The notes under the pieces are model-generated. The model did not search any database, was not told the origin of the DNA, and was given only the letters and a program-made list of their open reading frames with translations. Made by a program: the position numbers and the translations under genes. This document shows positions 9,741-62,975 of a stretch of 64,000 bases of DNA, in pieces. Within the stretch, counting starts at the first letter, position 1. Every line of letters begins with the position of its first letter. Source of the DNA: Amphiscolops sp. MND2022 (taxonomy: Eukaryota); contig OZ076409.1 in the NCBI GenBank assembly GCA_964187785.1, positions 14,138,001 to 14,202,000 of the forward strand, read 5' to 3'.

Positions 9741-9802
9741 TGCAAAAATAAAACATTGAGCCTGTGCTTTGAAACGAACAATCATCACAACAGTTATCGA
9801 CA

Positions 9803-10756
9803 ATGTTATCTTTTGAAACCTTTGAGAAACTAAATAAAAAAGAATCATATTCGATTTACACCGACCTTTATCAGCAAAAAAACGAGCACGATTCCCTGAA
9901 GATGCTTCTTACCCAATTATTAGCCAGAATGGACGACACCAACAAATTGTTAGTTAAAAATTTCAATTTTTCTACAGAGAATAAAGAACCCAATGAAGAC
10001 AAAAGACCAGACCGAAAAGAACAGTCAGCAAAACAGTTAGTAAAACCAATGAACTCCCTGCCAGTCAACAGCAGTACTGAAAATTTGATAATTGGTTCAA
10101 GTATCATAAAACGAATACCCAATAAGTCCTTGCCCGAAGATGTAGAAATTCATGCTTATTCGGGATCTACTAGTAGTCAGAAACTTGAACTGCTACGCCA
10201 TTATAGCGTGAAAAGGCCTTTGCAATCTTTGACTATTCAAGACGGAACAAATACAATTCTCAAAAATCGGGAGAAGAATGTCTCAGAACTATTCGAAAAC
10301 TTCCAAGCTCTTGTGTCAGAAGCCATCCGGAAATTCGAGCCGAAAAAATTATTCCTGTGCGAGACTCCACCACTGCGAATTTATGAGAGGAACAAAATCG
10401 CTAATTGTAGAATTGAGGAGTGGAACAACTTATTACATGAGCATTATGGAGATGGTGAAAATATTCAAATAATTGATCTGAACAAGCAAGTAAAGTCCTT
10501 CAAAAATCCGGAAACTTTATACTTCGATGACATTCATTTCAACTTCCAGTTGGGCTTACCGCTAATACGAAATAGCTTAATGAAATACATCACCTGGTAT
10601 TCTAATAATCTGCCCCGAATCAATACAACCTACTATCGTCCAAATTCAAGTTATTGGAGACAAAATACAAAGTACCCGAAATATACACACAGGAATCAAT
10701 ATCAATACTATCATCATCAGCCACTGACTACATTCCACTATATGGGCGACGCGTGA
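9803..10756 (+). CDS. LINE ORF1p: N-terminal coiled coil plus SGNH/GDSL esterase domain
   Basis: 317 aa; SGNH blocks LIIGSSII (I), YSG (II), QDGTN (III), DDIHF (V); helical LKMLLTQLLARMDD N-terminus; Y/R/H-rich tail. Confidence 0.85.
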   Translation: MLSFETFEKLNKKESYSIYTDLYQQKNEHDSLKMLLTQLLARMDDTNKLLVKNFNFSTENKEPNEDKRPDRKEQSAKQLVKPMNSLPVNSSTENLIIGSSIIKRIPNKSLPEDVEIHAYSGSTSSQKLELLRHYSVKRPLQSLTIQDGTNTILKNREKNVSELFENFQALVSEAIRKFEPKKLFLCETPPLRIYERNKIANCRIEEWNNLLHEHYGDGENIQIIDLNKQVKSFKNPETLYFDDIHFNFQLGLPLIRNSLMKYITWYSNNLPRINTTYYRPNSSYWRQNTKYPKYTHRNQYQYYHHQPLTTFHYMGDA

Positions 10757-10815
10757 TAACTGAATTGAATGATGTTCAACTTCAATCGGAGCACGGGCAT
10801 TCCTAACCTTAAAAA

Positions 10816-13800
10816 ATGAAAAAAAGCCTAAAGTTTTTCATTCTTTTTGGTCTAATACCTAATTTCTTAGTATCAAAAGAAATGCCTGTGCAACCAATGA
10901 ATGGACGATCCCCAATGAGATACGAACTAAAATCCAAGTGCAAACATTTTGAGCCTAATCGTTTTTTTATATCCGTAATCTCTCCACTGATCAAAAAAAT
11001 ATTCCTCTTTTGGAATAAATTGAAACAAGCATCAATTGGTGAGCCTAGTTTTTTAAGATTGCGAACCACTTTCAACATGTTTTTTCAATGGAAACTCTCT
11101 TTGAGCGGCGACATTGAAATAAATCCAGGACCACTAATAAACTTCAAGTATTTAACAACCTTGTTCAAGAAGAATAATAGGAGTTTGAAGTTTTTCCACC
11201 TAAATGCACAAAGTTTACTTAAAAAAAGATCGACACTCGAAAATCTCATCAACGATCTTGGTGCAAACACCATTTTTGGTTTTTCAGAATCATGGCTAAA
11301 ACCCAGTGATGACAAGAAATTATGGCAAATAAACCCAACTCATTTCAAAACATTTCGGACTGATAGAGAAGCACCAAATAGAGAAAATGGTGGAGGAGTA
11401 ATGCTAATAATTCCTGCATGCCTTAATCCCAAAACGCGGAACGATTTAAACTATTTGAATAAAGAACTTTTTGAAAGTCTCTGGATCGAATGCAGCTTGA
11501 ATAATAGTACTTCCAACAAGAAGAAGCAGTTGATAAATATTAGCTACAATCCGAAAAAACATATTACGATCAATTTCTTGAAGAGTTATCCATAAGTATT
11601 GATCATGCAATTGTCGAAAATAAACCACTGACAATGATGGGCGATTACAACATAAATTATCTGAACCAAAGAGAAAAAGAAGATCTTGGAACTGTTATAT
11701 TGCCCTATGGGTTAACAACAATCAATACTGATCAACCAACCAGAATAAGCAATAAATCGGGGTCATTGATAGATTACATTATCACGGATCACTATAATGC
11801 TCATTCCTTTTCATCATTTGTATCTGACACCCCGTTCCGTACATCAGCTAATAATACAATCGATCATTTTGCGACTTCTGTAATTAGTAATATCAATTTG
11901 CAACCCTCGCCAAAAGTTTTCATGAAAGAAATCTACGATAAAAAGTCTTACAAAAAAGAATCTTTTCAAAACATACTGGGTAATTGTAACTGGAAATACT
12001 TTTATGGACAAACGTGTCCTGAGGGAATGTTCACAATACTAACGAGTTTTATTGAAAATTCCTTGCGTAAATCGATATCAAAAAAGAAAGTTTTTATCCG
12101 CAATGATAAGAGTAATCTAACCATTCATCAGAAGTGGGTTTCCTCTGAGACCAAACATCTTTATAACAAAATTAAGCAAGATATGAATCCAAATGACTTA
12201 AAATACGAAGACATTCAACAGCAGTTTATTCGTAATCTTAGTTTAGATCGCGATGAGAATAAATCTAAATATTTCCTCGAATTAACTAATGAACGAGAAA
12301 AATGGAACTTCATAAATGAGGCACGGAACTCGCTGAGAACAAAAACTGTCATCCCATCTTTAAAAAATGTTTTTGGAGATTATGTTACAGATCAAAAGAA
12401 AGTAGCAAACCTCCTCAATTACAGATTTTCAAAACTGGGCGATTTTATTGGGCAATGCAAATTTTTCAAAGAAGAAACGTTTAATATTTCTTCGATCCCA
12501 AACTTCGCAAAATTCAGTTTTCATCCGATAACTCTGTATGAATGCAAAAAAATAGTGAGGAGCTTAAACACAAAGAAACCACTTGGACCATCTAATATAC
12601 CTGCATGGGCGCTTAAAGACTCTCTAAACGTCATTGCTGAACCACTCACATTCCTCATAAATGCGTTTCTTGAACAGGGAAAATTTCCAAATCATCTTAA
12701 AAGAGCTCATGTAGTACCAATATACAAAAATGGTGACGCGGAAGAACCAAACAATTATAGACCTATATCAATAACTTCAGCCTTATCGAAAGTTTTTGAA
12801 AAATTAATTTGCAATCAAATCCTAGAACATCTCGAAAGAAATAATTTACTAAGCCAAATTCAATTTGGTTTCAGAGCAAAGTACTCGACAACAGATGCTC
12901 TTTTGTATGCTACGGAAAAAATAAGATCTGATATTGATAACAACAAAATGGTAGCTGCGGCCTTTCTCGATTTATCTAAAGCTTTCGATTCCATCTCCCA
13001 TGAAATTCTATTGGAAAAGCTCGAAAATTTAGGATTCGATCAGATAGCTATTTCTTTAATTGGAAGCTACCTGAGTAACAGAACGCAAAAAGTTGTTATC
13101 CAAAATACATCATCTGATTGGATTGACTTATACCAGGGTGTTCCACAAGGTACTATTCTCGGTCCTCTCCTATTTAATCTATATGTTAATAGTATGCAGA
13201 GTGCAATCCAAGAACCATGTGAATTGGTTCAATATGCAGATGACACTTTTCTGTTTGTCTCCAATGAATGTCTCAATACTGCTGTAAGTCAACTTGAAAC
13301 TAATGCTGCCAACTTAGTTGACTACTTTGAAAAGCATCGATTAAACCTCAACGAGAGTAAAACTGAATTCATTGTTTTCTGTAAAAGATCTAAAAACAAT
13401 TCTACAAAAAACCTAACATTTCGTGTTAGAAATCATATGACAAAACATTCCTCGTTTGTGAAATACCTTGAAATATACTTAGATCAAAATTTGACATATG
13501 AGTATGAAGTGAAAAATATTTTAAAGAAAATGGCATGTGGTATTAAAACTTTATACTCAGTGAAATCGTTTCTACCAGATAAAACATGTTTAATGCTACT
13601 CAACTCTCTTGTTATTAGCCATATACATTATCCAGCATTACTACTTAATGGAATTTCACAAAATTTAATTACAACCCTAGAGAAACAACTAAATTGGGGT
13701 GTGAAAGCTTGTTTCAACCGAAGGAAGTATGATTCCTCTAGTGATCTAAAAATAAAGCACAATATTTTTCCGATCAGAATTCTTTTAGATCTAAAAGCAG

Positions 13801-14120
13801 TCACCTACTTCTGGAAATATCAGAATAACCTACTACCTGCTTTTAAGAGCTCAAATAAAACAACAACTGCTCTGATAAAAACGCAGTCACGGACAAAGGA
13901 AATTAGTTGCGATTGTCCAGCAAAAAGTGCTTTCATGAAAAATAGTTTCTTCATGAGAATTATACCCTTGTGGAACAGCCTACCACTAATGTTATTCAAG
14001 GAAAAATATTCTATCGAAACTATTAAAAGTAAACTGAAACGATACTTTATTGGTAAAATAGCCCATGAAATAGAGCATCCAGAATATAGGAAGAAGTGTT
14101 GGAGAGATTATCGATTTTAA
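10816..14120 (+). pseudogene. LINE ORF2: leader, 2A-like peptide, APE endonuclease and reverse transcriptase; one frameshift
   Basis: APE motifs HLNAQSL, SESWL, GGGV, MGDYN, LIDYI, DH; RT motifs NYRPIS, QFGFR, FLDLSKAFD, GVPQGTILGPLLF, YADD. The two ORFs (10816-11595, 11634-14120) join if one A is restored in the A6 run at 11554-11559 (PKKTYYDQFLEEL). The usual YLG motif reads YLE. Confidence 0.92.
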
Positions 14121-33925: not shown

Positions 33926-33943
33926 CACTTCAGGAAGTAGTAT

Positions 33944-34877
33944 TGTCAGAACGAGTCACGTTCGTGTTAATAACGGTGTTGAGTCCGCTACCTTCGATCG
34001 CCGGTGATGATATTTTCTCAGTAAGGGCTAACACAATGTTTGTTAATTCACTGATTTGTTTATTCATCTCCATGAAACGTTGATCAACGGAATTCAAACT
34101 GGAATTTTGTCTAACATTGATTAAATCCCCATTCTCGAATTCATTTATCTGGTTTCTAGATAACGTGTTAGGGAAACTATATTCGCTCTTGTTGTCACTA
34201 TTTTGTTCCTTTCCGCTAGAACACGCAGCATAACTATCTACGTTTTGAGATCTAGTATTGACCATCTTTGAACCTTCGAAAGGAATTGTTGTTTTAAAGG
34301 TTTATTGATTTTAATTGAAAATATGAATAATCAAGTTTTGACTAAATCAATGAGGTAAGCAACACTACGTTAGGCTGTGTAAAACTTCGTACTGATGGTA
34401 CTTCAACTCTTGTCGCAATTTTTACTGCAGTTGGTCACGTGACTGCATTGACCAATAGTATTGCGCTATTGATTAGGTATTAATTGGTGCGTCCTGCTGG
34501 TAGCAACGTAAATGGTGTTTTGTACAAAAGGTAGCACCAATATGTTACCATGGTTACATGAATCATCTATCACTTGCGTTGGTTGATACAAATTGCGTCT
34601 ATGATGGTGCACTACCAACGTTATATATGATAGTACATTTTGCTGATGAAATTAAATATGGTGAAAGCACTTGTACGTAGCGTGTAATGAGTAAATGATG
34701 TCAACGTTTACAATTCGTTTTTTATTTTAGAAAGTAATAATAATGATGGGATAGGCCCGTCATTGTTCGATGGTAATTCATGGTTATTGAAATATCAAGG
34801 GTATTACATTTAACTGAGTTTTTTTTTAAATGTTTAGAGTAATCTTTATCAGTTTCATTCATGCTTCCGGCATGACA
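33944..34877 (-). repeat. 3' LTR (934 bp)
   Basis: TGTCA...TGACA termini; about 15 substitutions and 1 indel versus 48753-49685 by eye (~98% identity). Confidence 0.97.
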
Positions 34878-34889
34878 CTCCCCCTCTTT
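34878..34889 (-). promoter_or_regulatory. Polypurine tract
   Basis: Minus strand AAAGAGGGGGAG directly abutting the 3' LTR. Confidence 0.93.
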
Positions 34890-35907
34890 AAAAGAAAAAG
34901 CGATGTGCAGGGGTCTTTGAAAATCTGATAGCGGGGAGGTGAGGTAAATGTAGTAGCTTCAATTATGCAGTAATTATTGGCTGTTTAATCGTTCTACGAA
35001 GGTGATTTGACTGGTGTAGTGACCTCAGCTAGTGTTGGATTGTCCGTTACGGATGATGTCATAGCAACCACGTCGTTAGTGATGAGTCGCTTTGATGGCT
35101 TGGAGTACTCGGATTGTTTGGGACCAATTGTTACTTCGATTCGGTACAGCAACTGAGAGGAAGAGAATGAGTTTAGCGTAACGAGTGAACCACTTCGGTA
35201 AATAGTAATTGTAGAGTCGGTGTGGCGAGAGTAGCCACGTCATCCAATTGTGCGCGTCGTTTGTAGTAAGAGTTTAAGTAAGAATGAATCTGCCGGAAAT
35301 TAGTTGAACGTGGCAGCGTGATATAATTACTCGGCTCATTCGGTAACTGTTCGGAAGTGAATGTAGTGGAACATCGTACGCTTTGTCAACAAATCTTCGT
35401 CGGTGCTAAATACGAGAGTAGAAGTAAGCTTGGTTACGGTTGATTCAGTTGTTGATTGAAGTTGTTCTTATCCAGTTAGCGATATACCAGGTGGATGTGA
35501 TTTGACTAGCGGTAAATCGGTTCAGTGAATGCTGTCTGCATCTAGGTTGCTCTGCGTGGAAAACTCAATTGCAGTGTAGTAAGACTTCCGAATTTGGCAT
35601 TTTGTTTTCTTGGTTTTCTCTTTTCCCTTTCTTTTCTTTAGTTTTGAGTAGGATCCAGCGATCTTTAGTATTCGAACGCAACCGTTCTTTGAGTTTGAAT
35701 TTTTCTGAGTGAATTATTTTCGAGTAAATTCGGTTGAAATTTCTCTTTGTGATATTCCGGTGTCTTGTGAACACGGAGGGTGTGGGTGATCAGACCACAT
35801 CTCGTATTGTCAAAGACGCTGAAGCCTTGTAGATCGCGAATTCTACAGTTATAGATCCTTGTTGTCTCGTTCGCCATTGGTTGTTCGTGATTAGTTCCAT
35901 TACTTGG

Positions 35908-38900
35908 ATGTTATCCCCCGAATTGTCTGAAGAAGAAGTTGCATCGATTGTGATAGCCGCGGAAGGCGCGCTAGCTGAGATGTCAAATTTGGAGCAGTTA
36001 TCTGATGAAGAAGGTTTCCAAGCCTCAGTTGATACGTTGTTGGAAGGAGAGACACCATCAGTGTGCTGCCAGTTTGCTCAGCGTGTGAATTCGTCCAATG
36101 TAGAGGCTGCTACTACTTTGTTGGAGATAGCTCTCTCCAGTGAATTCCGTAAGTAAATCCGTAGTTATCATTTTCCTTCTTTATGGCTACTGAGACGGTC
36201 TTTCAACGTGCTTGCTATTGTGTGCTTTGTAATTAGGGGTAAGCTCGTCAAGGTAATTGAAATGTTTGTTGCATTGGTATTTGTGTAATGTAGTTACCAA
36301 CGTCTCGACTAAAAGGACTTCCCGGAAACTATTACCTTGGGTAGACTTCTGGGCATTGCAAATGGTACTCATAGGTTAGATTGTACCATGTATGTTGCAG
36401 AATCTTTGAGTCTGACCGATATCGTCGCCGCTCTACGACGAATGCTTCGACAGAATGAGCCTCCAGTAGTTGCATCTCCCGTGAGTGCCGTCGAGACTGG
36501 GCTCCGGAATTATGTATACAGCCAAACTGGTAAGTCTGTTCGCTAACTGATCCATTATTGTAACGAAGGTGTTGCATGATCGTTATTGCTCTGTACGGCG
36601 TGTCAGTTTTTTATGGTTGGCTTCGCGATTCACTCTCGTTTACACGATGTGTAGTAATCTGCGTTGTTATCTTTTGGGTGGGATGTTTCCAGGTACGGCG
36701 TTGGGTGGCTTGTTAACTCTAGACGACGTCGTTGCTGCTATCGCTCGACTGCAAAATGAGTTGTCCGGCGTGGTTAAGGCCACCATCGAGTCCACTCTTG
36801 GTCAGCTCGGGACAGTTGGGGCAATGGCTGTGGATGAGTTTGTCGGTCAGCTGACTGCAGCAGTTTCCCGTTTAGTCCCTGCTAGTGGCTTGAAAGCAAC
36901 CGTGCCTGGGGAGGATGCCCCCTCATATCGTCATCATCATCTGTGGGTGTTGCGCCAGTTGAAAGTGATGCTCAAAAAGACTTGTCCGTCGTAAGTCGAA
37001 CGGCATCGATGGTTCCTTCCATTTTTGGAGAATGGACCGTAGCAGGATCATCCAGTGCAGGGAAAGTGGCTGCTGCTAAACCTGGTAAGAATCTCAAAAG
37101 ATCATGGGCGGGGTTTTAGTGAACACTAATGTTAAGATTATCAAGAGACAAGACTAGATATATATGTTTTTTTGTTTTTATATATATGGGACTATTTAAC
37201 GCGTTGTGTGTTTGCGTTCTAGCTCGTGCTCGGAAGATCAAGACGCTCAAGCCGTCTTCCTTTGTTTCTGGCGTCGTGGGGACCTTCGTTGGATTCCCCC
37301 GGAACAAGCGGGTGATTGACGGTTACGCTCGATGTTTACTTTGTCGTGCGGATTTGAGCATTGCAGGACGTGGTCTGTCATCGTTATGGGATCACTGGAA
37401 GGGAGTTGAACACACCCGATTGGAGCAAAAGTACAGGATTATGACACACAGGCCATTGTTGGACAAGTCTTGCAGACTAGTATCTGCAGAAGAAGATCGA
37501 CGGATCAGACGTGCTCGGCTGACCGAACCGCCGGTCTTTCTAGAGTCTGCGCTAAAGTTAACTGTGGAGGAGCGAATAGCCATTGAGGAGGCAGAGGCTG
37601 AAGAAGGCGCGCGTCCGCATTTGCAGGACGAAAGTGTGAATTACTTGTGGCTGAGTAATTTCGTCTCAAGTTTTCTGACTGTGACGTCCTTTGATGGGTT
37701 GCTCCGGTCGCTGGACTCATGGAGGGACTGTATGGCAAATGAACTTCGTTTTGAGTGCCGTACTCTGACCTACTCTCGATGTCAGGTAAAAATCAGATTT
37801 TGCAGTTATTATTAAGTTGTACTGGTTACTTAGTTAACTTGCTAGTCATGTGGTTGCTATCGGTGCATTGTTACTCTTTTCGGGTACGGGTGTTGTGTTT
37901 GCCTAAGTTTTTCGGTAATTTTATCAGTTTGTTTGATTCTGTTTAGAGTCTCGTGCTGTATGGCTTGTACCAGTATGCAGTTGAGCAGTTAGACGCACTG
38001 GTTGCAGCAAGCTCTTGCATCGGCGTTTGCATCCGTCAGTGCGATTGGCGGTGGTGTGGTGAGCTCCACATCGTTGGCGTAAGATAATGAATAGATATAG
38101 ATGAAATTTATAAAAAAAATAGATTAAATTATTTCTCATAGTATAAATAGATATTTAGAAAGTCCATGGCATAACTTCAGTGGTCTTGGCGCTTGTTTCC
38201 GGTGGAACTGGATGGGAGAAGCGGCTGTTGAACAACGTCATCCCAGTTCTTGCGTGTCTCAAAGACAGAACTCAATTGAAGACGATTGCGCGTGTCTCAA
38301 AGACAGAACTCAATTGAAGACGATTGCGGTAGAGGGTGATGTACATGTTGGGCGGGCGTTGGCTGCAGTGGTATCGCCTAAGACTCCTCTCGTGGTGGGG
38401 TTGATTACGCAGCGGTCAGTGTTCAACGAGGTACAAAAACAGTTTCTCGCAGAGTTCGCGGGTCTAGATCCCCTCAGTGTCCTCGAGTACTTTCGTGTGA
38501 GGCTGATGTCCGTTGCTCAAGAGGGTTTCTTAGACCGTTTGTCGTTATTGCGGCGGGTTAGTAAAGAAAACCCTTTTTTTGTGTAGTTCATGGCATTTGC
38601 GTAGGATTTCGATTGTTTGGCTCTGGTAAAAAGGTAGATCGTGTTCTTGTTTTGTAGTATTTTCGACTCGGTGGAGATGACGTGTCCCAACTTGCACTGG
38701 TTTGCGCAGAAGTGGTGGACTACTGGAATGATTTGGCGCTGTACTTTGGTACTCATAGACCGGGAGTGACGTCAGAACTGCGTCCGATTACTCCTCTAGA
38801 AAGTCAGGTGTTCGAGGATGCACTGATTCGGCCTCGTTTTGCTGTTCTGCGCCTAGTGCTAGATTTGAGTGAGTATGGGTTTATATGCGGTTGATCGGAT

Positions 38901-40394
38901 ACTCATTTGGGTACACGTGTAGCTGTAAGTTTGTATGTTTGAATATGGTTAAAAATTAGGTTATGTGGGGGCGTATGGAGCTAAAGTACAGCGTGTAAAG
39001 TTTGGTGTGTAACTCTTTGGTGTTGTGTTTTAGTGGTGAAGCACTGCCCTAGTTTGTGTAGACGTGGACGCGATTATGGCATTGTCTCGGAACGGGAACT
39101 GGCTCACTTTTTGCGTGGACTAATGAAGTTTATCTATCCGGCTCACAGTATTCCAGCGGAGTACGATATCGCTGCCCTGTTGAAAAATGTGAACCGGGAG
39201 TATGCAAACGTTGACTCTAACATGTATAGATTACATTTCTGGCAGTATTTCCGTTTCGACATCAGCACTCAACTGCCTTTCTTTTACAAATCTGTCCAGA
39301 AAATGTTAGTCGGTATATGTCGCGGATTGAGCGGATTGTGGCAGCGTACGTGGCCCCAGCATTTGAGCTTGACTCCATTTGATCCGGTTCTTATTCATAG
39401 CGGGTCGGATGATCGCTGTGTCGACTCCTTAGTAGCAACTTGTGCTGTGTTGACTGCTCATGGGCTTGTGGGGCTAGATGATGGCAGAGTAGTCCAGCAA
39501 CAGTATCGCGAAGTCACCCAATTTTTCAAGAGACGCTGGGCCTTTACTACGGAAGAACTACCAGTGGTGGAGGACATTTTCGCATTGTGGATGTCATATC
39601 CTCACTGGGAGCGGTGTGAACAGTTGCGGCAGGTCATCGATCTGGCTTTCAGTGCAGTGGCCACTAGTTCGTACCGGGCGGATTTTGTGGATGACGTCGA
39701 CGGAGCTTTGGATCCTGATGAACTGGCTTCAAGTGTGCATTTCGTCCGGAGTTGGTTCAGTCAGTCTTTTGTGGGAAAATCGCGTAACCAACTACGTGGT
39801 TTGTTGCGTGTCATTGAGACAACCGACATGCAAGTGTCTCGTTTGAACGATAGCGTTCGCGCTAAACCGTGGGATCAACTTCTCAAAGTCGGACTGGATC
39901 AAACGTTGTCCTTGTGTGTGTCCATGTTGGACAATGGTCCTGATACCGCAGTCGTTCCGGTGGTGGATGAGTATCGTTCGACAGTACTTGCGCAGTTGAA
40001 TGTTATTGCGGTAATGGCAACGAGCCCTACTCGTGTAGCGACGGGTCCTAAAGCGATGCCATCCAGTAGAGACGCGAAATCCAAGCGGCCCCGCAGTCAG
40101 TCTGATGTGAAATTGAAGACTCCCAAGAAGACGCCTAACGCGGCTACGGTTGGAACCTCTAAATCTACAGAGCGAACGAGGAGCGTCGTGGTCAGTCGGC
40201 GAGGTCATAGCGCAGCGGTGAAGTCTGGAAAAGGACGGCGGACTGGCGTGAAACCGCATGCATCTAAGAGACTTGTATTATCTACGGCGGCAAGTGAGGC
40301 TTCAGATCATGGTAGTCAATCGTCCAGTGACGATGTGCCACTGTCTACTACTAAGCGGATGAAGCAGGTCATCCGTGATTCATCGGATGAATAG
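35908..40394 (+). pseudogene. Antisense 8-exon cargo gene inside the Gypsy element; ~1129 aa after correcting two lesions; BED-like zinc finger plus degenerate hAT-transposase-like body
   Basis: Exons 35908-36148, 36401-36529, 36693-37084, 37223-37785, 37947-38078, 38159-38556, 38658-38868, 39034-40394. All 7 introns are GT-AG (80-252 nt) with matching phases (1,1,1,0,0,0,1). Requires +1 C in the C5 run at 36918-36922 and removal of a 38-bp duplication. C-x2-C-x16-H-x5-H at 37333-37413. Start codon uncertain. Confidence 0.8.
38253..38328 (+). repeat. Perfect 38-bp tandem duplication that frameshifts exon 6 of the cargo gene
   Basis: CGTGTCTCAAAGACAGAACTCAATTGAAGACGATTGCG at 38253 and 38291. 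Confidence 0.95.
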
Positions 40395-42545
40395 TTGTGA
40401 ACTAAACATACTGTTGAGCTTGTATTTGGCAGTTTGTCGCTTGCTGAAATGATTTGTACCACTTTGAATGTTTTGCTTCTGAACGTGTAGTTTGTATATA
40501 AATATTTTTTTGTTGATTTATCGCGGGAGCGGTTTTAGATGTATCGGAAGTCACAAGATGCTAGTTGCGTTACCCGGTAACCTCCTTTTCTACTTGTTGG
40601 ACTTGCGGTTATTTTACATGTTTTAGAACGTTGAGCTTGTTTTTCAGTTTTCATTTTGATGATTTTTGTTCCATTCTGCATACCTGTTGTGTTGTTCTTT
40701 CTTCATGATTTGTAGTATTCAGTTGTTGTTGGTCCATGACCTTTGACTAGGTTTTGTTTTACTTCCAGTGCCCTTATTACAGTTGAATTCACATGTTGCC
40801 TACGTTATACAAATTTTTTACCCTAATTTGCATGTAAACTTAGATAGCTGGTCTCAAAATGTTGGAGCGATAGGCTCAGCTTTGCAAGTCATTCAAGTTC
40901 TAGTAGAGTAGTCGCCTAGGTAACTACCCTTGAAAAGCTCTCACTCACCAAGTGCCAACCTCGTGTCAGCATTGTTCATGATTATAGCTTACATATGACA
41001 GAGGTGGAAACTTGGTGGGTGGGTGGAGTCGCTCAACTCCTACAGATGATTTGAACTTTTGAGTAGCTGCTTTTATAGTGCTCTAGTTGGTTGTTTGACA
41101 GGTGTTTACTAACTTAGGTGTCATTCTAATCTGTCAGTTCATGTTGAGTTTTACATAAATTTATTTCTCATGTAGCGTTATTCTTGACGTCGTCATCGTT
41201 GATGTGTGTCATGCGACGTCATCACTCGTGTCGTGTGTCAAGTGTTAATGTCAATCTTAATGGTAGATGGGTTTCCCCATAGCCATTAAACTTTTTGACA
41301 AGGGGTGGTGAGTTCCATCCCTTGTTACGAATCTTCGGTGATGTAGTGAATAAGACTGCATGTTTTTTGTTGTTCTGTCCTTCCCCCCGTGAGGCGAGGC
41401 CTACGAATCAACAGTAAGAACGAAAGTGTCATGACCTGAATTCGATGTAGAGGTGACGACTGCATTTTACTGTCCTAGGAAAAGTTTTATATGTTGTTCA
41501 TTGGATTGAGAAGGTTATTTGCCGTCGCAAAAACCCATACAAAACTAACACCGAATCCACTTGCTAAAGAGCAAGCTTCATCTGAATGTTTGTACAACCA
41601 CACAGACGCGCATTTGACGACGCACCCACACAGCCGAACCACATCATGATTTCCTGGGCGGAAGTGCGGGACTAGATTTTGGCGGCGTAACTTAACTAAG
41701 GCAGCTATCTTTTTTGCATGTTCAGTTGTGTGCTGTTACTTTTGCTAAAATGGTTTATTACTGTCGTCGTAAGGTTGGTAAGTACAGAATTGCAAAGCAA
41801 TTCCTTTGAAAGCGTGTGGTTGGGGTTTTCTGTGAATTGCATAAATTAGTAGCTCGTTTGCGTGTGTTTTACATGTACTTAATAATTTCCGGTTAACGTG
41901 ATGTGGTGTGTATGACTGCATTGCATGTATTTACTTTTGCGCTCAGCTGTCTCGGTAGAGAGTAACAGTATACTCTGCCGGTAAACTCAAGTATGTCGGA
42001 CAGTGAGTATCAGTCGTCACTGAATGGCCTAAAGTAATCCAAATAAATTAAAGGTATGATTGATGCATGTGGTGATGTCGACTACATTCAATTAATTGCA
42101 TGTATATTTTTTCTTTATTTATGGTGAAAATGACGTGGTTTGTGTGGCAGCGTTAGGTGTTTCTTTTCGTTCGTACTGTTGGTGGAATAGAGTGAGACGT
42201 TAAATAACGCGTAGCGACGCAGTGTGTGGAACTGCGTTACGACTGTCTCGTCTGTCGTTCGTTAGCCGGTTAAGGGCGGAAATATGCTCTGGCCGGTAAT
42301 TTTGAAAATTGATGACAGTGAGTGTTAGACGTTATTTATGGTATCATTCAGTATTGTTTTTCTTCGTGTCTACTTGATTTAATTTACATGTATGTGTTAC
42401 GAGATTCTCTCTTTTTTGTTTTTAGGAGAGAGTGTAGGACACTCCCATTTAATTTTTGCATGTGATATCACTTCTCGTACCGATACGAGGCGAAGCCTAC
42501 GAGTTGTCAGCAGGAGGGAACACAGATTTTATGTTTGCATGCGTT

Positions 42546-45500
42546 TTAGTCGGCGGATCTGTCTTGCATGAATTTTAGCAGAGCCGGTTTGACTCGGAGT
42601 TCGTGGACTAAGAAGTCTTGGTAGGTTTTCGGTTGCGGTTCGGTTCGGAGGTTGTACCGTGTTGCGTTGTTACGCGACGTTGTGTGGTCATGCTCATTAT
42701 GAACTGCCGTTGTATGTTCAGTCACAGATTCGCTTGTTTCAGTATCAGATTCGTTGTTGGTGTCGTGATGAACAACTGAATTGTCAGGCGGTTGCTCGCA
42801 GGTTTCAGGTGAGCTCTCCGGAATTGGTTGCATCAGCGTATGATCGTTCAATTTCCGTACATGCTCATAATAGATAAGGCCGTGTTCATTATTGATTTCT
42901 TCTTGATCGATTGTTTCCGGTGCCGGTTCTGCATACAAATGCTGAGGCATGTGGTCATTGAAGAACACTTGATCATCGGCCGCATCGGGGTCAGCGAACA
43001 AGCGGTTTGAGTCTTCTTCAATGTCCGGTATTGGTGCGTTCCGAGTGAAAGGACGTAGTCGCATCCTATGCACGCACTGTGTTCGGAAGGTTCCGACCTT
43101 CCTGATTATGTAGTTAAAGTTTGTCAGTACTTTAATTACTTTGAAGGGACCTTCCCATTTGAAGTCATTGAAGTTAATCTTGTCGGACTGCGTTGTGAGT
43201 TTAGGATTAAGCAGAAATGTGTAATCGTTGACCTTTAATGGTAACGCTTGGGCTTTACGGTCGTAGTACCTTTTGTACTTGTGGTATGCTTGCAGTATGT
43301 TATCATTGACTTGTTGGTATTTGTCGTTCACCTGGTCAACTAAACTTGTTATATCAGTTTCCGTGGTTTCACATTTCAGAGGGTTACCGAATTTGAGGTC
43401 TAACGCGTTGAACGGAACTCTGCCGTGGAAAACTTCGCTCGGAGTGCACTTGAGTGATTGATGGTAGGTTGTGTTATGAGCCATTACTGCAAGATTAACG
43501 TACCTGTCCCATTGGGGGGAGTCGACGGAAATGTTAATCTTCAGAATCTGTTTCAGCCTTTGGTGGGAACGCTCCACCATCCCTATGGTTTGGGCATGCT
43601 TTACAGTAGCGTGGTCGATTTTGATTCCGGCAGTTTTCATGATTTCGGTCATGATGTTGGATGTGAAAGCCGTGCCTTTGTCGGTGATAATTGTCTTCGT
43701 GACGTAGGCGTGTTGGGTGAATATTTGCATGCGCGCTTTTACAACCGATTTAGTGTCTGGTTTCCGTATCGGCACAGCGAACAAATACCGTGAGAAGTAG
43801 TCGCACGCCGTCAGGATGTGCGTATATCCGTTTGAGTTAGGTAGTTCACCTACTAAATTGATTTCCAGTACGTCTTCCGGACCGTTACAGGGGTCGTAGA
43901 TTTTTTCTAGAGGAGGCGTTAGTCGTTTTGGGTTAACAGGTTTTGCTTTGATGCACTCAATACAGTTACTTACGTACTTTGAAACGTGTTCACTCAGGCT
44001 TGGTATGTAGTAACGCTTGCGGAGTTCTACCAACATTTTTGATGCCCCAGGGTGTCCCTGCATGGGGTCGCCATGCATTGTCCTGATTATGGGCATGGTA
44101 GTTTCTGGAGGTACTACGATTTGTTTAAGTAGAATTCCGCCAGTGTTATCAAAAAAGTTCCTGTACAGTACCTTGTTGACTACTTCAAGTCTTTTTTTGT
44201 TTTTTACCAGTTTTTGAAAAAAGGAGCTGGTAAAGTTAACGTGGTTTGGTAGTGGTTCGTTGTTCACTAAAACGCGAACCATTTTTTGGACGTCTTGGTT
44301 ACCTAACTGATCTTGGACGATTTGTGAATCCCCTTGCGGGCATACCTGATTTACCGAGTTAAGGTGGTGACGTCAGGTAAACCTCGTCAGTATGATGGAA
44401 GGGGTGTCTCCTGCCAGAAAGGGTTCAAGGTGTCGGCTGATGATCTGAATCATCTTGAGACGTTCGTCGTCATGTGTTTGAAGGTTGTTCGCCATTGAGT
44501 TTAGCAGAGTTCGCATCTTGGTGAAGTCGTCTGCTGGACCGGTGGTTTCAGACTGATGTGTAGTAGCTGTCGCTGCATCGGGTTGCTGTCGGTCTGGGTC
44601 GTAGTCTTCTTCGTCCTCGTCCTGTTTTGGGGTTTTGGCCGCAAGATCTATTTCGATGTGGTGGACTGGAATCTGGTCATTCAATTTCAAGTGAATTCTG
44701 TCTTCAGGATTAATGTCTAGTCGAGACAGGTAATCTGCAGCTGGGTTCTCGACTCCAGGGACGTGGGCGAGAACAAAGTCAAATTGAAGTGCTTGGTCAC
44801 AATGGTTCCATAGTTTGGGTGGTATTCGTTTCGACTGGAAGAAGCGGGTCAAAGCCTTGTTGTCTGTCATCACAATTGTGGGTTTTTTGACACCCCACAG
44901 TATGTGAGCAAATTCGTCGAAGGCGAAGTGCATTGCGAGGAATTCTTTAGCATACATGGTCAATGACATTTGACCTTCCGTGAATCGTTGCGAGCCGAAT
45001 GCTACAGGGGCGTACGTCTTCTTCTGTCGATCATTGGCTTCGGTGTAGTTCTCAATGAGGAGCACGTACCCTGCTGCGTGTTCACTCGCATCACACATGA
45101 TGACCAGTTGTTTGTCTGGTAGTGGTAGTCGCAGAGATAGTTTTGCAGCTCGTGCCAGGTTCTGATTAATATCAAAAATTGCGTCCTTGTGAACCTGCGC
45201 CAGGGTGAACTTGATGTCTTTCTGTAGTAGTTTGTACAGGGGTACCAGCTTTTCTGCCAACATCGGTATGTACTGTCTGTAGAAATGTACAAATCCGATG
45301 TAGCGTTGTAGTGATTTGACTGACGTTGGTTTTTTCAGGTTGTTGAGGAATTTGTCGATCTTGTCCTCAAGTGGCGCAATCCCTTTGTTAGTGATGCTTC
45401 TACCCAAGAACTCGATCTTTGGGTGACCAAAGGCGCATTTAGACATCGACAGCTTTAGACCTGCCTTCTGAATCTGCTGGAAAACTGCTTCGATGTTGAT

Positions 45501-47243
45501 TATCAGTTCGTCCACATTGTTGGCAGCGATCCCAATATCGTCGACGTATTGGGCACATTTGTCTGCTTTTACTAGTGCATCTAAGTACTCTCGAATTGTA
45601 CTGTTGAACGCAGACAAAGACCTATTCAACCCTTGCGCGAGTCGGAGGTAAGCAAAAGTTCTGCTGCCAAAATTGAATGCCAGAAGTTGTATTGATTGTT
45701 CGTCGGCCATTTGGAGGCAGTGGTAAGCTTGCGAACAGTCAAGCTTGCAAAAGTACCATTTGCCAGCCATATGCTGGGCTGCATCGGCAATGGTCGTTAC
45801 TGGGTGGTTGTGGTTGTTGTAGTCATTTTTGAGGAGGTGGTTGATCCGCCTCAAGTCGACTAATATCCGAAGTTTCCCGTTAGGTTTTCGTTGTGCAAAA
45901 ATTGGAGAGGAATATTTGCTGTATGGTAACGTTGTGATGATCCCGTACTCCTGCATCAGTGCGAGTTCGACCAGCAGATCATCTTTCAGATTGGTTGGAG
46001 TAGGTAGACTCTGGGCGTACACGGGATCATCGTGTTTGGGGGCCAGCTTGATCTTGAAATCGGTGTTGATGCCGATATCAAGACGATGTCTAGCAAATAT
46101 CGTGTGGTATTTGACGAGCAGTTCTTCGATCCTCTGTTGCTCGTGCTCAGTGAGGATCGAGTCGTCCCAGCTGAAACTTTTGAGGAACGTTTGGCGTTGT
46201 TCGTCATCGCATGTCGGGTTGAGTTTTTCAGCTTCTCGGAGTTTGATGAGTTCGTCGTAGATACGTCTTTCTATTTCATTTAGGTTGTCAGGATCGTCAC
46301 ATGTTTCGGGCGTCGGGTACCATCGTTTATCATTTGTGGCGCTGGGATCCTGGAACAATTGGTTGATCACATTAGCCGCTTCATCAGGGAATTTAGTGAT
46401 CAACGCCAGCTGCTCGTTGGTCATTGGCTGGATTTTTCTGGCTTGGTTTGGCGTAAGTATTCGGAAGACTGCGATTGTGCTGTTCTGAGGTATTGTAACT
46501 GCGTGGTCCATGTGGTTGGTAATTTGGACGTGTGTCTGTTGGTTCTTGATTTCAGACATTGATGGTGACACTAGCAATTCGGTTTTTCGTTCAAAAGCTG
46601 GGAACGCCTCTATTGTGCCTGTCACTATTCCAATGTTCTTGTCTGTTGTAACAGTCACAAAGATTTGTTGTCCCGGCGAGATGGTTGTTTTTTGGGTTGT
46701 TCTGAGTTCCAACATCTGCAGTTTGAGTTTCCCGTTTGGCGGTTTTAGTTGGAGGGTTATTTCTGGGAATCGCACAATGTTCTTTGCAAGGTCTAGCGTG
46801 ACAGAATATTTTTTAAAGAAGGACATTCCGATGAGGATGTTTCCCATTGTTGGTAGGATCATGAAAGTCTCTTCGAATATTTTTCCCCCAATGAAAAATC
46901 GAAGAAGCACTTGTTTTCTCACCGGAACGATGTTTCCGTTGGCTATTTGGACTTTGAAGTCCGGTGCTGGATATTCTTCCAACTGGGCTGCTGGGTGGGC
47001 TTGTAGGTTTCGACGTAGCTCGTTCTCAGACATCGCGCTCTGGATTGCTCCAGTGTCCAGTAGCCCTTGATTTTCATACTCACGGAATTGAAGAGGGACG
47101 TAGAGCATCTTGTTTCTTCTGTCTAACTGGAGTGTAGCGCTTAATGGTCTGATGTTTGTTGGCTTCGATTGGTGCTCCTGTTTGGTATTGTCATCCAGTT
47201 CGTTCGGCCTTTGGCCGGGTTGACACTCTCTCGTTGGTGTGGT
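42546..47243 (-). pseudogene. pol: Gypsy pol: protease, RT, RNase H, integrase; in-frame TGA at 44373-44375
   Basis: LLDTGA (PR), YVDD (RT), CDAS/KEF/TDN/ADYLSR (RNase H), H..H..CIEC zinc motif, ITDKG and VERSH (IN), GPF motif. ORFs 44373-47108 and 42546-44282 are in the same frame across one stop. The first integrase Asp appears as Asn (EINLVG). Confidence 0.95.
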
Positions 47244-47484: not shown

Positions 47485-49074
47485 TTACAAGTTTTTTGAA
47501 TTCGTGTCGTATTCATCGTTGTAATCCATGTCGTAGCAGTCGTTGGTTTCTTCTGGTTGGGTGGTCTGGCTTGTCGCTTGCGTGACTTGGTAGGTCGGTT
47601 GGTAGTTGTTTTGTGACTGTTTGAATTCACGGCGGAATTCTCGGTTTTCATTGGTGGATTGCTTGTCATATGGTACATTTCGGTAAGCCGATGCACCTGG
47701 TACCCTGTCTCTGCAATCCCGTGCTGAATGTCCGATCTTGCCACAAATTTGGCATACTAATTTGGAGTTGTATCGTGGTTTTTCGGTTTCTTGTTGTTGG
47801 GCATTGTTGTTTCCAGATTGGGGACGTTGTTGTGATTTCTTCGTAATTCCGTTGGCTTCGTCCCTGAGGCGTTTACGGCATTCGATCCACTTGTGGCCCA
47901 GTATGTTGCAGTATCTGCAATTTCCTTCGAATCTTCGTTTGACTTCTCTTGTTGGGTTCTTCTCGGTGTTGTTCGGGTTGTGGGCTGGCTGAGCGTTGTT
48001 TTGCTTTGGTTGGTAGTTGTAGACCTGGTTAAGTGGGTGCATATCTGAGGTGCCGGGGAGCAATTGTGCATATTGGCAACGGTGTTGTACAAACGTCTTG
48101 ATTTCTTCGACCTTGGCATCGTGTTTGCCTGCCATGGCAAGTTCATTCTGAATCTGGATTGGTAGTTTGGCAAACAAGAATGTTTCGGCTATGTCATTGG
48201 CTTTATCTCCGTATGCTTGTTTGGCAAGTTTCTTGTATCTAGTTAGGAAATCGGCAAATGATTCCTTTGTGGGGTCATACCTCATCTGATCGAATTTGTA
48301 CTTCGATACCTCTTTGAGGTCTTCCTTCGCATACTCCTTGGTGAAAGCTTGCAGTACGTCTTGGAGTGTCGTTTCTGTCGTGATTTTTAGTGTCTGTTAG
48401 AATTCTATGGCCTCGTCTCTGAGCAGGCTTTGAAAATAGTTTAGCTTCTGCTCTTCTGTTAATTTGTTCATGTGTGGGCGGAGGTGGTTCTTCAGTAGGT
48501 GTTCGAATTCGTTGTACTTCTCTCGGTTTCCGCGGAAGAGAGGTACTTGAGTTTGGAGGATTTTGGGCTGTATTACTCCGTCGGTCATTGTTGTTCGTAG
48601 GTTGTGTATTTCGGTCAATACATCATCCATCTGAGGTTCGTTGGTGGGTGGTGCACGATCTCTGTTTTGGTGAGTTGCAGGGGTTGGGAGGGTCCTGCGT
48701 GGCTGTTGGATATTTGGAGTCGGATTTGGGTTCGTGGAGACTCCTGTCACCATGTCAGAACCAGTCACGTTCGTGTTAACAACGGTGTTGAGTCCGCTAC
48801 CTTCGATCGCCGGTGATGATATTTTCTCAGTAATGGCTAACACAATGTTTGTTAATTCACTGATTTGTTTATTCATCTCCATGAAACGTTGATCAACGGA
48901 ATTTAAACTGGAATTTTGTCTAACATTGATTAAATCCCCATTCTCGAATTCATTTATCTGGTTTCTAGATAACGTGTTAGGGAAACTATATTCGCTTTCG
49001 TTGTCACTATTTTGTTCCATTCCGCTAGAACACGCAGCATAACTATCTACGTTTTGAGATCTAGTATTGACCAT
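47485..49074 (-). pseudogene. gag: Gypsy gag with two CCHC zinc knuckles; in-frame TAA at 48397-48399
   Basis: ORFs 48397-49074 and 47485-48285 are in frame across one stop; CRYCNILGHKWIEC and CQICGKIGHSARDC. Confidence 0.92.
48740..48752 (-). promoter_or_regulatory. Primer binding site, tRNA-Leu-like
   Basis: Minus strand TGGTGACAGGAGT directly after the 5' LTR; resembles the complement of the metazoan tRNA-Leu 3' end (ACTCCTGACACCA) with one mismatch. Confidence 0.75.
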
Positions 49075-49685
49075 CTTTGAACCTTCGAAAGGAATTGTTG
49101 TTTTAAAGGTTTATTGATTTTAATTGAAAATATGAATAATCAAGTTTTGACTAAATCAATGAGGTAAGCAACACTACGTTAGGCTGTGTAAAACTTCGTA
49201 CTGATGGTACTTCAACTCTTGTCGCAATTTTTACTGCAGTTGGTCACGTGACTGCATTGACCAATAGTATTGCGCTATTGATTAGGTTTTAATTGGTGCG
49301 TCCTGCTGGTAGCAACGTAAATGGTGTTTTGTGCAAAAGGTAGCACCAATATGTTACCATGGTTACATGAATCATCTATCACTTGCGTTGGTTGATACAA
49401 ATTGCGTCTATGATGGTGCACTACCAACGTTATATATGATACTACATTTTGCTGATGAAATTAAATATGGTGAAAGCACTTGTACGTAGCGTGTTATGAG
49501 TAAATGATGTCAACGTTTACAATTCGTTTTTTATTTTAGAAAGTAATAATAATGATGGGATAGGCCCGGCATTGTTCGATGGTAATTCATGGTTATTGAA
49601 ATATCAAGGGTATTACAATTAACTGAGTTTTTTTTAAATGTTTAGAGTGTTCTTTATCAGTTTCATTCATGCTTCCGGCATGACA
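48753..49685 (-). repeat. 5' LTR (933 bp)
   Basis: Direct repeat of 33944-34877, followed by the TSD AGTAT. Confidence 0.97.
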
Positions 49686-50419
49686 AGTATAGCTTAGGCT
49701 GCATACAAGAGAGATTTTACAAACTTTGAGACACGTTAGATCTACTTTTTAACTTCGGGAAACGCGTTTTTCTTCAAAGAACAGAAATATGAGTTACCTC
49801 TCCATTTTATTCCACATGACGTTATCTGTAGTTGCTGCTTGCTGTGTTGTTTGTCATACCGTTCACCATTCCCTGTTTGTTTTCCGGTATTTTCTCCATT
49901 TCGAATGAACTGTGTGTTTTGTACGCTCAACAACCAGACTCATGTCACATCAACTAACTTCAAAAAAGCAGCTTTTTGTCACAACCACAAAAGTTTTGTT
50001 ATCCATTATAAACGCTGCAGATAATGAAGATAATGAAGATTCAGACTAGTTCTCATTGCGCCTCCGAAAAAGGAGGATTTTTACGATGAAGATTGCAATA
50101 TGAAACATACTTTTTTTGTACAAAATTCTGTTTTTCTTGAAAGTATTCAACCAATCAAAACAATAATCATTCCCGAAGAATGTTAGGTATTGCTTTGTGG
50201 GACAGAAAAAAATATTTCACCTTCGAATAGAAATCGAAAATACCCATTCAGGGCAGAGTCTCTCTAGTCAGCACCTTTGACTCAAGAAAATCTCTGTTTT
50301 TGATGGAGTTTTTACAATTGTGAGTTTTTCCAAAGTAAAAAAGAATTGATCTTACTCCATTATATAGAGTTACTCAGCATGGTTACGTGCATAGAAGGTT
50401 TCTACGTTTTCTCCAGCTA

Positions 50420-60419: not shown

Positions 60420-62975
60420 TTAGGAGGAATTAAATCTTATGAAAATTTTTGCGGGGCTTTCCGGTGAAGCTATTACATTTTGTACTAAAGCGTCATAATC
60501 TTGGGAATTTTGAGGTGTTTTAATATCGTTAATGTTGTTTGGGTGTGTCTTTTTTGGTGATTGAAAGGTTGGATTTTTACTTGTATTTTCAGGAGGTAAA
60601 TACGGGGAGTCATTATCAGAGTATCTTATTTGCTTATGTGTTTCTTTTTCGGATAACAGGATATGATCATTTTCACTAGTGGTAATTTTGTGTTTAGTAT
60701 ATATCTGTTTACGTTTTCCTGTATTATTTGAATCGGTAACCATTTCCGATGTGAATATAACAAAAAATGCATGGGCTATTGAACTCAAAATGGAAATTTT
60801 GCTTTGGAGATTATGTTTTATACTAATTGTCCTGTAGAATCGGAGTAGGAAAGTTAAAACTTCTCTTAAAAAAAGGTAGAGAAGTAAATTCCACATTGTG
60901 TTAAAATATAACATGGGTATCCGAATGAATGATTGAATGCTTGACTAAACCAATTAGGGTTGAAGAGTGGTAAAAAGTTCAACAAATGATCATGTAATCC
61001 AATCTTCAAATGATTATAAGGATTTGATTCTGTGTGGGAGTGTTGTTCATTATGCATTGTATTGAAATCGTAACTTAATGATTTTCCAAGTAATTGGAGA
61101 GTTGTATCTGAGTGTTTTGCGAATAATACTCTATTCCAGAATTGATCTAATTCTGCATTTGAGTAAATACCGGCATCTTGAGCTGTGAATGTATTGGGTG
61201 TTATTCATGTCTTAATTTGAGTGGGTTTAAACATTTGTGGTGGTTCCTTTTGTAGCGGGTCTGGTGTTAACACATAACACTCTCCGTCATCTGCATCTGG
61301 GTCTAATTCAATAATAATTTGTGGATTGTTTCCGCATTCTATTGGTGTGGCATAATTAAAAGTTTGTCTCGTTATAGGGTCTACATACATGATAGTTTCT
61401 CTATAGAGTATGGGAATTCTATCAAAGCATTTGTCTGCTTTGAATAGTGGCGATATGAAATGAGGGCAATCATACAACCATGCTGTAGATCCTTCGACAT
61501 AAAGGAAGTTACTGTTACTGCGATTTCCAGATAGAAGGAAACCGGCTAATTGAGGGTTTTTAACTGACATAGCTAAGATTGTTAACAGTTGTGTTCTTTC
61601 TAGTTCACATACTGTGTGGAGATGGTTTAGTTCTTGTACTGTCATTGATTTGAATACGGGCTTTATTGTGAAGTCAATTTTGGTATTAATATGAGCATCG
61701 TAATCTATGGTAGCGAAATTATTTGATATATTTAATGCAGGGATTATATATTTTTGATTAGAATTATCAAACTGTATTTTTCCACTAATATTTTGGTCTA
61801 TTATTGAATGTGGTTTTGACTGTCCAGTATTCATATCAAAACCATCTGAATAAGTAACAAAAATGTCGTCGTATTGTGTTGAAAATAGTGGTTCTGGTTT
61901 TCCACAAAACGTTTGTGCAATGGGATATATTTCAAATCCAGAAAGACTTGGATTGTCTACTGTTGATTGAGGTGTTTTGACATTGGGGTATTTTGTTCCT
62001 TTTATTCCTTCGGTCTGAAGGTGTTTTGTGATATTCGAGGAATCGATAAAGTTATCTGTTTCTATCCAATAACGGTCTTTAATTATTGTCATTCTTCCAA
62101 TGAATTCCTGTAGTCGAAGTATGAGGCAAAATTTTTCATCAAACCATGTTAATATGTATGGAGTTCTTGTGGTGGGTTTACAAAATCTTTCTGAATGATA
62201 ACATGGTATGGTAATATATATCCACCATGAATCATTTGATTATTTCTATCGTCATAGGTTATTTCAGCATTAGTTATTCTGAGTTTCCAGCTTTCTCGGG
62301 TTATTAAATGTTCTCTGTCGCTTCTACATCTTGAATTTTAATTTTGTGTAAAATTAACTATCCAGTCTTAGTAATGTTCATCATATACGAATGTTCCAAT
62401 ATGCCAAGCGTTTAACTTGCTACTCTGAATGGTTTTTGAAATTGTTCAATTTTGTTTCGATAATCGCTGTCATCAAAAAATGAGAAAGAACTTTGTATGT
62501 TGTAATTGTTTAATTCTTTACTATCAGTTGCGTTTAAATATCTTATCATGTTTTTACATTCAATAGGGTCAAGTCTTTTCGGAAGTTCTAGTGTATTTTT
62601 CCCCATTTTAAACGATCATATCGTCTACTGGATGAAAAAGTTTGGGAACACCAAACTTTTTCTGTTTTTATATATGCTCCACATTTGAAGGCTTTGATTC
62701 TTTTTGCTTTTGCTCTAACATATACTGTTGCTTGAGTTTTCGTATGATGTATGTCTGAGGATGCTTGTTTACATGGTTCAACATGTAGTAAGCTGAATTG
62801 TCTTAAGTTGTTTTGTTTTGCACAGTCATAATGGGATACCATAAGGTTCTAAATGTTTGGGTCTTGTGGTGAAATATGGTTTTCTGGGTTCGTTGTATCA
62901 GCTTTAGGAACTGATGTCGTATTAGCTAGGTGTATTAGGTAAACAATATGTAATGAAAAGTACGTCTATCATAGT
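60420..62975 (-). pseudogene. env: env-like fusion glycoprotein (chuvirus G / herpes gB-like class III), fragmented
   Basis: SHYDC..N..FSLLHVEPC near the N-terminus, CYHSERFCKP..TW..C, helix CELERTQLLTILAMSVKNPQLAGFLL..EGSTAWLYDC, CFDRIPI, C-terminal hydrophobic segment; several stops and frameshifts. Confidence 0.75.

Follow-up and report, generated by a model that had tools for sequence, protein, structure and literature searches.

We suggest that a seven-exon gene in the 64,000-nt stretch analysed here (Amphiscolops sp. MND2022, contig OZ076409.1, positions 14,138,001 to 14,202,000 of the forward strand; hereafter the window) is an antisense accessory gene of a Ty3/gypsy long terminal repeat (LTR) retrotransposon. 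The gene, referred to below as the cargo, is likely derived from a whole hAT transposase, lacks the catalytic Asp-Asp-Glu (DDE) triad, and is predicted to code for a protein that binds DNA in the nucleus and likely holds the chromatin of its element open for transcription. We give this reading as a whole a probability of roughly 0.5, its parts being of unequal strength.

The host is identified as a Ty3/gypsy LTR retrotransposon by LTRs with TG..CA ends, a primer-binding site (PBS), a polypurine tract, a short target-site duplication (TSD) and the order protease, reverse transcriptase (RT), RNase H, integrase, all of which were found. The cargo runs from 35908 to 40394 on the + strand, in the interval that separates the 3' LTR from the integrase end (42546), opposite to gag-pol. 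The features, in window coordinates, are as follows.

33939..33943: 5-bp TSD, with its second copy at 49686-49690
33944..34877, - strand: 3' LTR, 918/934 identical to 48753-49685, TG..CA ends
34878..34890, - strand: polypurine tract
35908..36148, + strand: cargo exon A, start codon and acidic helical N-terminus; donor GT in 30/31 copies, ratio of nonsynonymous to synonymous substitution rates (dN/dS) 0.16-0.29
36401..36529, + strand: exon B, AG/GT signals in the window sequence and protein-level matches in related copies
36693..37084, + strand: exon C, frame disrupted near 36918 in the window copy
37223..37785, + strand: exon D, C-x2-C-x16-H-x5-H BED-like finger and helices, including LWLSNFV..RTLTYSRC
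37947..38556, + strand: exon E/F, RNase H-like core of five strands without conserved acidic residues
38658..38868, + strand: exon G, helix with an invariant Trp where hATs have their RW motif
39034..40394, + strand: exon H, putative helical insertion-domain/C-terminal part, with three additional helices and a tail that is basic and rich in Ser
42546..47243, - strand: pol, encoding protease, RT and RNase H as well as integrase (Pfam RVT_1, RT_RNaseH, Integrase_H2C2, rve; open reading frames, ORFs)
47485..49110, - strand: gag region with a zinc knuckle, broken
48753..49685, - strand: 5' LTR, TG..CA ends, with a PBS-like TGG start next to it on the - strand

The original prediction, made from the letters alone, had described a catalytically dead hAT transposase retained by a retrotransposon at 37223..40000. 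The motifs it quoted were all found on the + strand in the claimed order, spread over exons D, E/F, G and H. Its span left out three upstream exons (35908-36148, 36401-36529 and 36693-37084), and its 1129-aa protein is valid as a reconstruction but not as an ORF, given the lesions and the GT..AG-bounded insertion of the window copy. This copy is broken: compared with four of four related copies, it differs by a 1-nt indel (near 36918), by a tandem duplication of 38 nt (38252-38327) and by an 83-nt AT-rich insertion (38079-38161) dividing exon E/F, which is a single exon elsewhere. The insertion is bounded by splice-like signals and otherwise matches two small contigs only; a newly gained intron and an assembly or contamination artefact are both possible. 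The pol of the window element is likewise broken, by one in-frame stop.

Far from being a single-copy curiosity, the cargo belongs to a large family. Searches of a 1.07-Gb eukaryotic assembly with exon H returned 127 matches of 52-100% identity (126 scored of 888 candidates) and those with exon D gave 150 scored of 3513 candidates, while distant queries uncovered more subfamilies and a second clade (clade II, 3343 candidates). Exon H of clade II is only 12-17% identical to the window copy, and clade I profiles recognise clade II in exons D, E/F, G and H. Loci were sampled as 10-kb stretches picked to cover identity bands. At 34/40 clade I loci (33 with integrase, one with RT and gag only) and at 12/12 clade II loci, pol lies tail-to-tail with the cargo on the opposite strand. 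Sampling in reverse, the cargo was present in all ten elements chosen from 131 scored RT matches, mostly outside the cargo lists. Two young families, with LTR ends 99.5-100% identical in 18/20 fetched copies, both carry it. Outside the assembly, 143 representative proteins match exon H, a few of the low-ranking ones looking spurious; the ten examined are fragments from ENA assemblies. Being antisense, placed in the interval from pol to the 3' LTR, shared by most copies and conserved like the core genes, the cargo has the properties of an antisense 3' accessory ORF (aORF-3R).

The protein is maintained by selection in every exon compared. Across 41 clade I copies (saturated pairs dropped, pairs not independent), dN/dS at synonymous divergences (dS) of 0.3-0.8 and 0.8-2.0, respectively, was 0.10 (4 pairs) and 0.08 (17 pairs) for exon D, 0.24 (7) and 0.19 (34) for exon E/F, 0.06 (7) and 0.13 (76) for exon G, and 0.11 (2) and 0.08 (10) for exon H, compared with 0.07 (51) and 0.06 (79) for integrase. 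GT/AG signals are intact at 285/296 junctions (eight sites) and intron lengths vary about twofold. As the protein is kept across copies with such variable introns, its conservation goes beyond chance. Clade II reads through the E/F-G junction, and intron positions thus differ from those of clade I. Cargo and integrase distances are correlated (Spearman 0.86 over 43/53 loci, the other ten having short or missing parts; 0.72 within clade I) and share the same deep split. Within clades, however, modules have been swapped: integrase stands at 91-92% with cargo at 60-61% in L041/L042, and cargo at 85% with integrase at 74% in L048. We conclude that the cargo is almost certainly a fixed functional gene, and the retention by a retrotransposon proposed at the outset is borne out in the sampled copies, in which the gene is fixed, selected and spliced.

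It is very probable, judging from alignment columns, that the product is catalytically dead. At the three positions to which we infer the catalytic residues map, no acidic column is conserved: the best one at the end of strand 1 has Asp in 24/59 copies; the end of strand 4 has 35 Glu and 0 Asp of 66, and at most 5/14 when both clades are included; and the ERxF-equivalent position has Glu in 14/59, possibly a relic. A CxxH motif after the second Asp is also missing, with no Cys or His in columns 105-118. The acids that remain conserved are one Asp in exon H (51/56) and four in helices following strand 5. The predicted loss of DDE and CxxH is thereby supported at the mapped sites.

A hAT origin of the cargo is likely, on the basis of three weak, independent matches which occur in hAT order and with hAT spacing. 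Firstly, the zinc ligands of the exon D finger are kept in 18/18, 18/18, 18/18 and 16/18 copies across both clades; its sole PDB sequence match at E≤10 is the BED domain of ZBED2 (E 0.9), its Atlas features are zf-C2H2_12 (0.92) and zf-BED (0.91), it resembles the ZBED2 and GTF2IRD2 clusters, and the helices after it fall where the hAT dimerisation domain lies. Secondly, in an AlphaFold model of the L049 exon homologous to E/F (mean predicted local distance difference test, pLDDT, 83.7) strands and helices follow the order beta1-3, alpha, beta4, alpha, beta5, and Hermes chains have the top query TM-scores among the Foldseek matches listed (0.41-0.45, probability 0.99). Thirdly, among the Foldseek matches listed for exon H, only Hermes 367-608 spans most of the model (175 residues, the other 49 covering ≤93). 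Landmark spacing in the cargo (D1-D2 58, D2-W 97, W-E 262) is close to that in six host hATs (62-68, 85-116 and 208-249), and the Trp of exon G is invariant (18/18), with Arg-Trp in 8/18 copies. The models are of single exons, as no annotated full-length protein was available among the candidates.

Several observations weigh against this ancestry. None of the three matches is significant alone and the sequence-profile tests failed: no significant hhalign profile match was obtained between the cargo and the host hATs, one comparison including 46 C-terminal rows. The RNase H-like core is present as anticipated, but its top structural matches are all RNase H-like folds, a kind of fold not specific to hAT; the Mutator-type prokaryotic transposase ISCth4 ranks fourth in Foldseek. 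no hAT or BED family came up in Pfam searches covering the window exons, the clade II exons and 77 sequences from the exon H alignment; PDB sequence searches with the exon H and E/F profiles gave nothing meaningful; and for exon H nothing was found in the Foldseek pdb and viral sets or on re-alignment of 316 chains (Hermes not among them), no usable match in the ESM Atlas, and no longer fused homologue among 2358 candidates. The hAT layout that had been proposed therefore stands in order and spacing and in the weak Hermes matches of single-exon models, but not in the individual significance of the matches, a Pfam zf-BED match or an alignment with host hAT profiles, and for these reasons we keep the ancestry at likely. 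The same gene, with the same likely role, could descend from a different DDE transposase, one bearing a helical insertion (MULE, P or Kolobok), or from a cellular zinc-finger protein. The generic core fold, ISCth4 and the non-significant profiles speak for such a source, which we nevertheless regard as unlikely because the BED-like finger, the W landmark, the C-terminal match to Hermes 367-608 and the spacing favour hAT, and ISCth4 reaches a query TM-score of only 0.31.

Because the dead transposase is maintained as strongly as integrase, it must help the element. It would thus likely be a DNA-binding helper rather than an enzyme, the simplest role being that of a nuclear regulator acting on element DNA. 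An ancestral hAT would have inserted, or been copied, in reverse orientation into the stretch from pol to the 3' LTR. Its introns, antisense to the genomic RNA and thus not recognised in it, would have stayed unspliced during retrotransposition and persisted, as retroelement biology suggests, while terminal inverted repeats (TIRs) and catalysis could be lost with the integrase of the retroelement supplying mobility. Transcription would start from a conserved block near the 3' LTR, which lies 500-700 nt before the cargo start codon and is, to judge from its position and conservation, likely the antisense promoter of the cargo.

35190..35417, + strand: non-coding block conserved upstream of where the cargo starts, 68-87% identical among ~20 diverged copies, its indels being of any length

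It contains promoter-like words, which are CRE/G-box-like, ETS-like and TATA-like. The BED-like finger would recognise short DNA words and the dead core would supply oligomerisation, as in Hermes and host-domesticated hATs. With binding sites in or near the element, the protein could act in trans on relatives, like the plant VANC anti-silencing factors. Granted the rest, we see slightly less than an even chance that it regulates its own element positively or counteracts silencing there. Activation or anti-silencing is preferred over repression since young, amplifying families carry the cargo and related elements carry chromatin-type cargo (SET).

A finger that is near-invariant across clade I, next to divergent LTRs, is a point against such a role, as VANC-like co-evolution predicts otherwise. 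It suits instead a conserved target, as would be expected if the protein were a repressor that limits its own spread (copy-number control), or else a decoy competing with host BED-finger repressors or with active hATs, of which the genome contains many intact examples. The anatomy predicted is the same. We hold a repressor or decoy to be rather improbable, given the presence of the cargo in young, recently amplified families and the chromatin-directed look of other cargo in related elements (SET domain, E 1e-9), neither of which is decisive. A DNA-binding transposase scaffold with basic, Ser-rich C-terminal tails could also tether the pre-integration complex or guide it to preferred sites, and nuclear-import roles have been proposed for plant antisense ORFs (PMC7264820, in the text available). 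We see little probability in this: the 18 usable of 20 fetched flanks from the two young families share no motif and contain no tRNA gene, so that sequence-level targeting is unsupported (four of 18 touch one common repeat, its abundance uncontrolled), and the reshuffling of cargo and integrase within clades (L041/L042, L048) opposes a tight partnership.

Binding of element RNA for export or packaging is less probable still. It would rely on a second conserved block.

41482..41657, - strand: non-coding, conserved block containing a pair of small covarying hairpins; the GACG loop of one is invariant on the element RNA strand

This block is 80-95% conserved in most clade I loci, as the finger is, and its hairpins show compensatory changes, but overall folding z-scores are weak, 12/12 clade II loci lack it while retaining the cargo, and BED fingers bind DNA (PMC10368747, as far as its available text goes). 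The block was also considered as a TIR of the cargo and rejected, being a single copy located downstream in the window and most loci. An Rfam search over the element gave one weak match at chance level. The GACG loop is reminiscent of gammaretroviral packaging loops. A plain hAT nested in the element, or a nuclease that has stayed active through a rearranged site, has next to no probability, and the nested version is largely refuted: one conserved Asp in exon H is in favour, but no inverted repeat >13 nt joins the gene flanks in the window, the only TSD around the cargo is the 5-bp one of the element, typical like the element ends of gypsy integrase, rather than one of 8 bp, and the cargo occupies the same position in 56 sampled elements of two pol clades; intact DDE, flanking TIRs and an 8-bp TSD, named beforehand as refuting signs of the dead-transposase claim, were thus looked for and are absent.

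Further observations concern the element and its relatives. The frame upstream of gag continues into LTR sequence (33933-34301 and 48400-49110, with a 123-aa frame in the 3' LTR copy), and the LTR may for this reason overlap the gag start. Large repeated units (L076/L145/L146, C2:77.95 Mb; L078, C4:23.33 Mb; L083, C6:6.22 Mb; L087/L151/L152, C7:43.37 Mb), which share >25 kb at 95-99% between C4 and C6, contain one cargo subfamily, there without pol. In them this cargo lies tail-to-tail with one from a different subfamily, which is either whole or internally deleted and is accompanied by the remnant of an LTR. In the C2 and C7 units there are also a SET-domain ORF (Pfam E 1e-9), an ORF that looks Tudor-like by eye and an ORF of 642 aa that weakly matches BRCT and has motifs which may be reminiscent of Transib/RAG1. 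Clade II elements have an acidic ORF of 220-300 aa at the 3' LTR without a Pfam match (element sense, L176:361-1197, L177:404-1162, L184:460-1116, L186:440-1330); it contains hydrophobic-then-acidic words, similar to those ending many clade I cargo proteins, and these words resemble SUMO-interaction motifs. In one subfamily, further ORFs without a Pfam match lie upstream of the cargo (L188:321-1130 and 1299-1946), one resembling by eye the Tudor-like ORF of L145. The L084/L154/L155 locus (C8:37.53 Mb) is a large palindromic duplication with two head-to-head cargo copies and a nested short LTR element. Elsewhere in the window are broken ORFs at 60420-62239 (- strand) matching a Monjiviricetes fusion glycoprotein (Pfam E 9e-11), putatively belonging to a different element as its env-like or endogenous viral gene, a non-LTR-type RT element at 9773-14120 (+ strand, RVT_1 E 1e-36), several families resembling miniature inverted-repeat transposable elements, and tandem arrays.

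Reuse of a transposase as a DNA-binding regulator is familiar from host-domesticated hATs such as the ZBED family and GTF2IRD2; here, by contrast, the domesticating host would itself be a transposon, and the gene is mobile and exists in many copies. Like Hermes and the host hATs (L125-L130), the cargo is predicted to combine, in this order, a BED-like finger, a helical linker, an RNase H-like core, a helical insertion with W and C-terminal helices, at similar spacing. Unlike them, it lacks DDE, CxxH, ERxFS and TIRs, is carried and moved by an LTR retrotransposon, and is longer at both ends, by ~290 N-terminal residues and, at the C-terminus, by three helices and a long tail; its finger is CCHH, that of Hermes CCHC. 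The Hermes BED domain binds short subterminal repeats (PMC10368747).

Also close are the antisense ORFs found in Ty3/gypsy elements from plants (Retand TRP28/PF04195, Grande gene23, RIRE2), which occupy the interval between pol and the 3' LTR and are lineage-fixed, as the cargo is. According to the available text of the reports on them, the Grande ORF has its own promoter and a nuclear protein, DNA binding is predicted for TRP28, no similarity to other transposable elements is noted and both their origin and their function are called unknown, a nested-transposon origin having been raised and then set aside (PMC7264820, PMC11963269). The cargo differs in being multi-exon and in having a traceable class II transposase architecture, and no Pfam match to TRP28 (PF04195) or the plant mobile domain (PMD) was found in the exons searched. 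In the accessible parts of the sources, PMD is a domain common to Gypsy and MULE elements (PMC5418596) and VANC is the known anti-silencer encoded by transposable elements (PMC6719617, PMC13547354). The parallel lies in a domain present in both class I and class II elements and in an accessory factor, proposed or shown, against silencing; PMD, however, passed from host to MULE, whereas the cargo would have passed from transposase to retroelement, and VANC lives in DNA transposons and comes from a MAIN-like protein. An LTR counterpart of VANC, that is, a dead anti-silencing factor derived from a complete, intron-bearing hAT, domesticated by an ancient Ty3/gypsy lineage, swapped between subfamilies as a module and carried beside SET, Tudor-like and SUMO-binding-like cargo, is a tentative and, taken together, doubtful version of our proposal.

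Captured extra genes are also present in gypsy-like elements of animals, such as those with bdelloid ORF3 and the planarian Burro, for which the available text lists env, GDSL, DEDDy, BIR, BCL2, MATH and dUTPase (PMC5408684, PMC6431247); within that text 'transposase' and 'intron' do not occur in PMC5408684, nor 'hAT' in either. Literature searches at the level of titles and abstracts returned no published retroelement with a captured hAT or dead transposase, although Repbase, subscription journals or supplements may hold one. The cargo thus likely represents a known class, the antisense accessory gene, with an unusual and testable hAT-like origin. The family is large, young and under selection, and with one finger, many variants, two deep clades and a recognisable transposase architecture both origin and function are open to test. 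The cargo would exemplify a transposase domesticated not by the host but by a second mobile element, and is a candidate for a retroelement factor that counters silencing. In addition, it illustrates that a multi-intron gene can stay stably in a retroelement when facing backwards, and warns that such exons are prone to mis-annotation as host genes.

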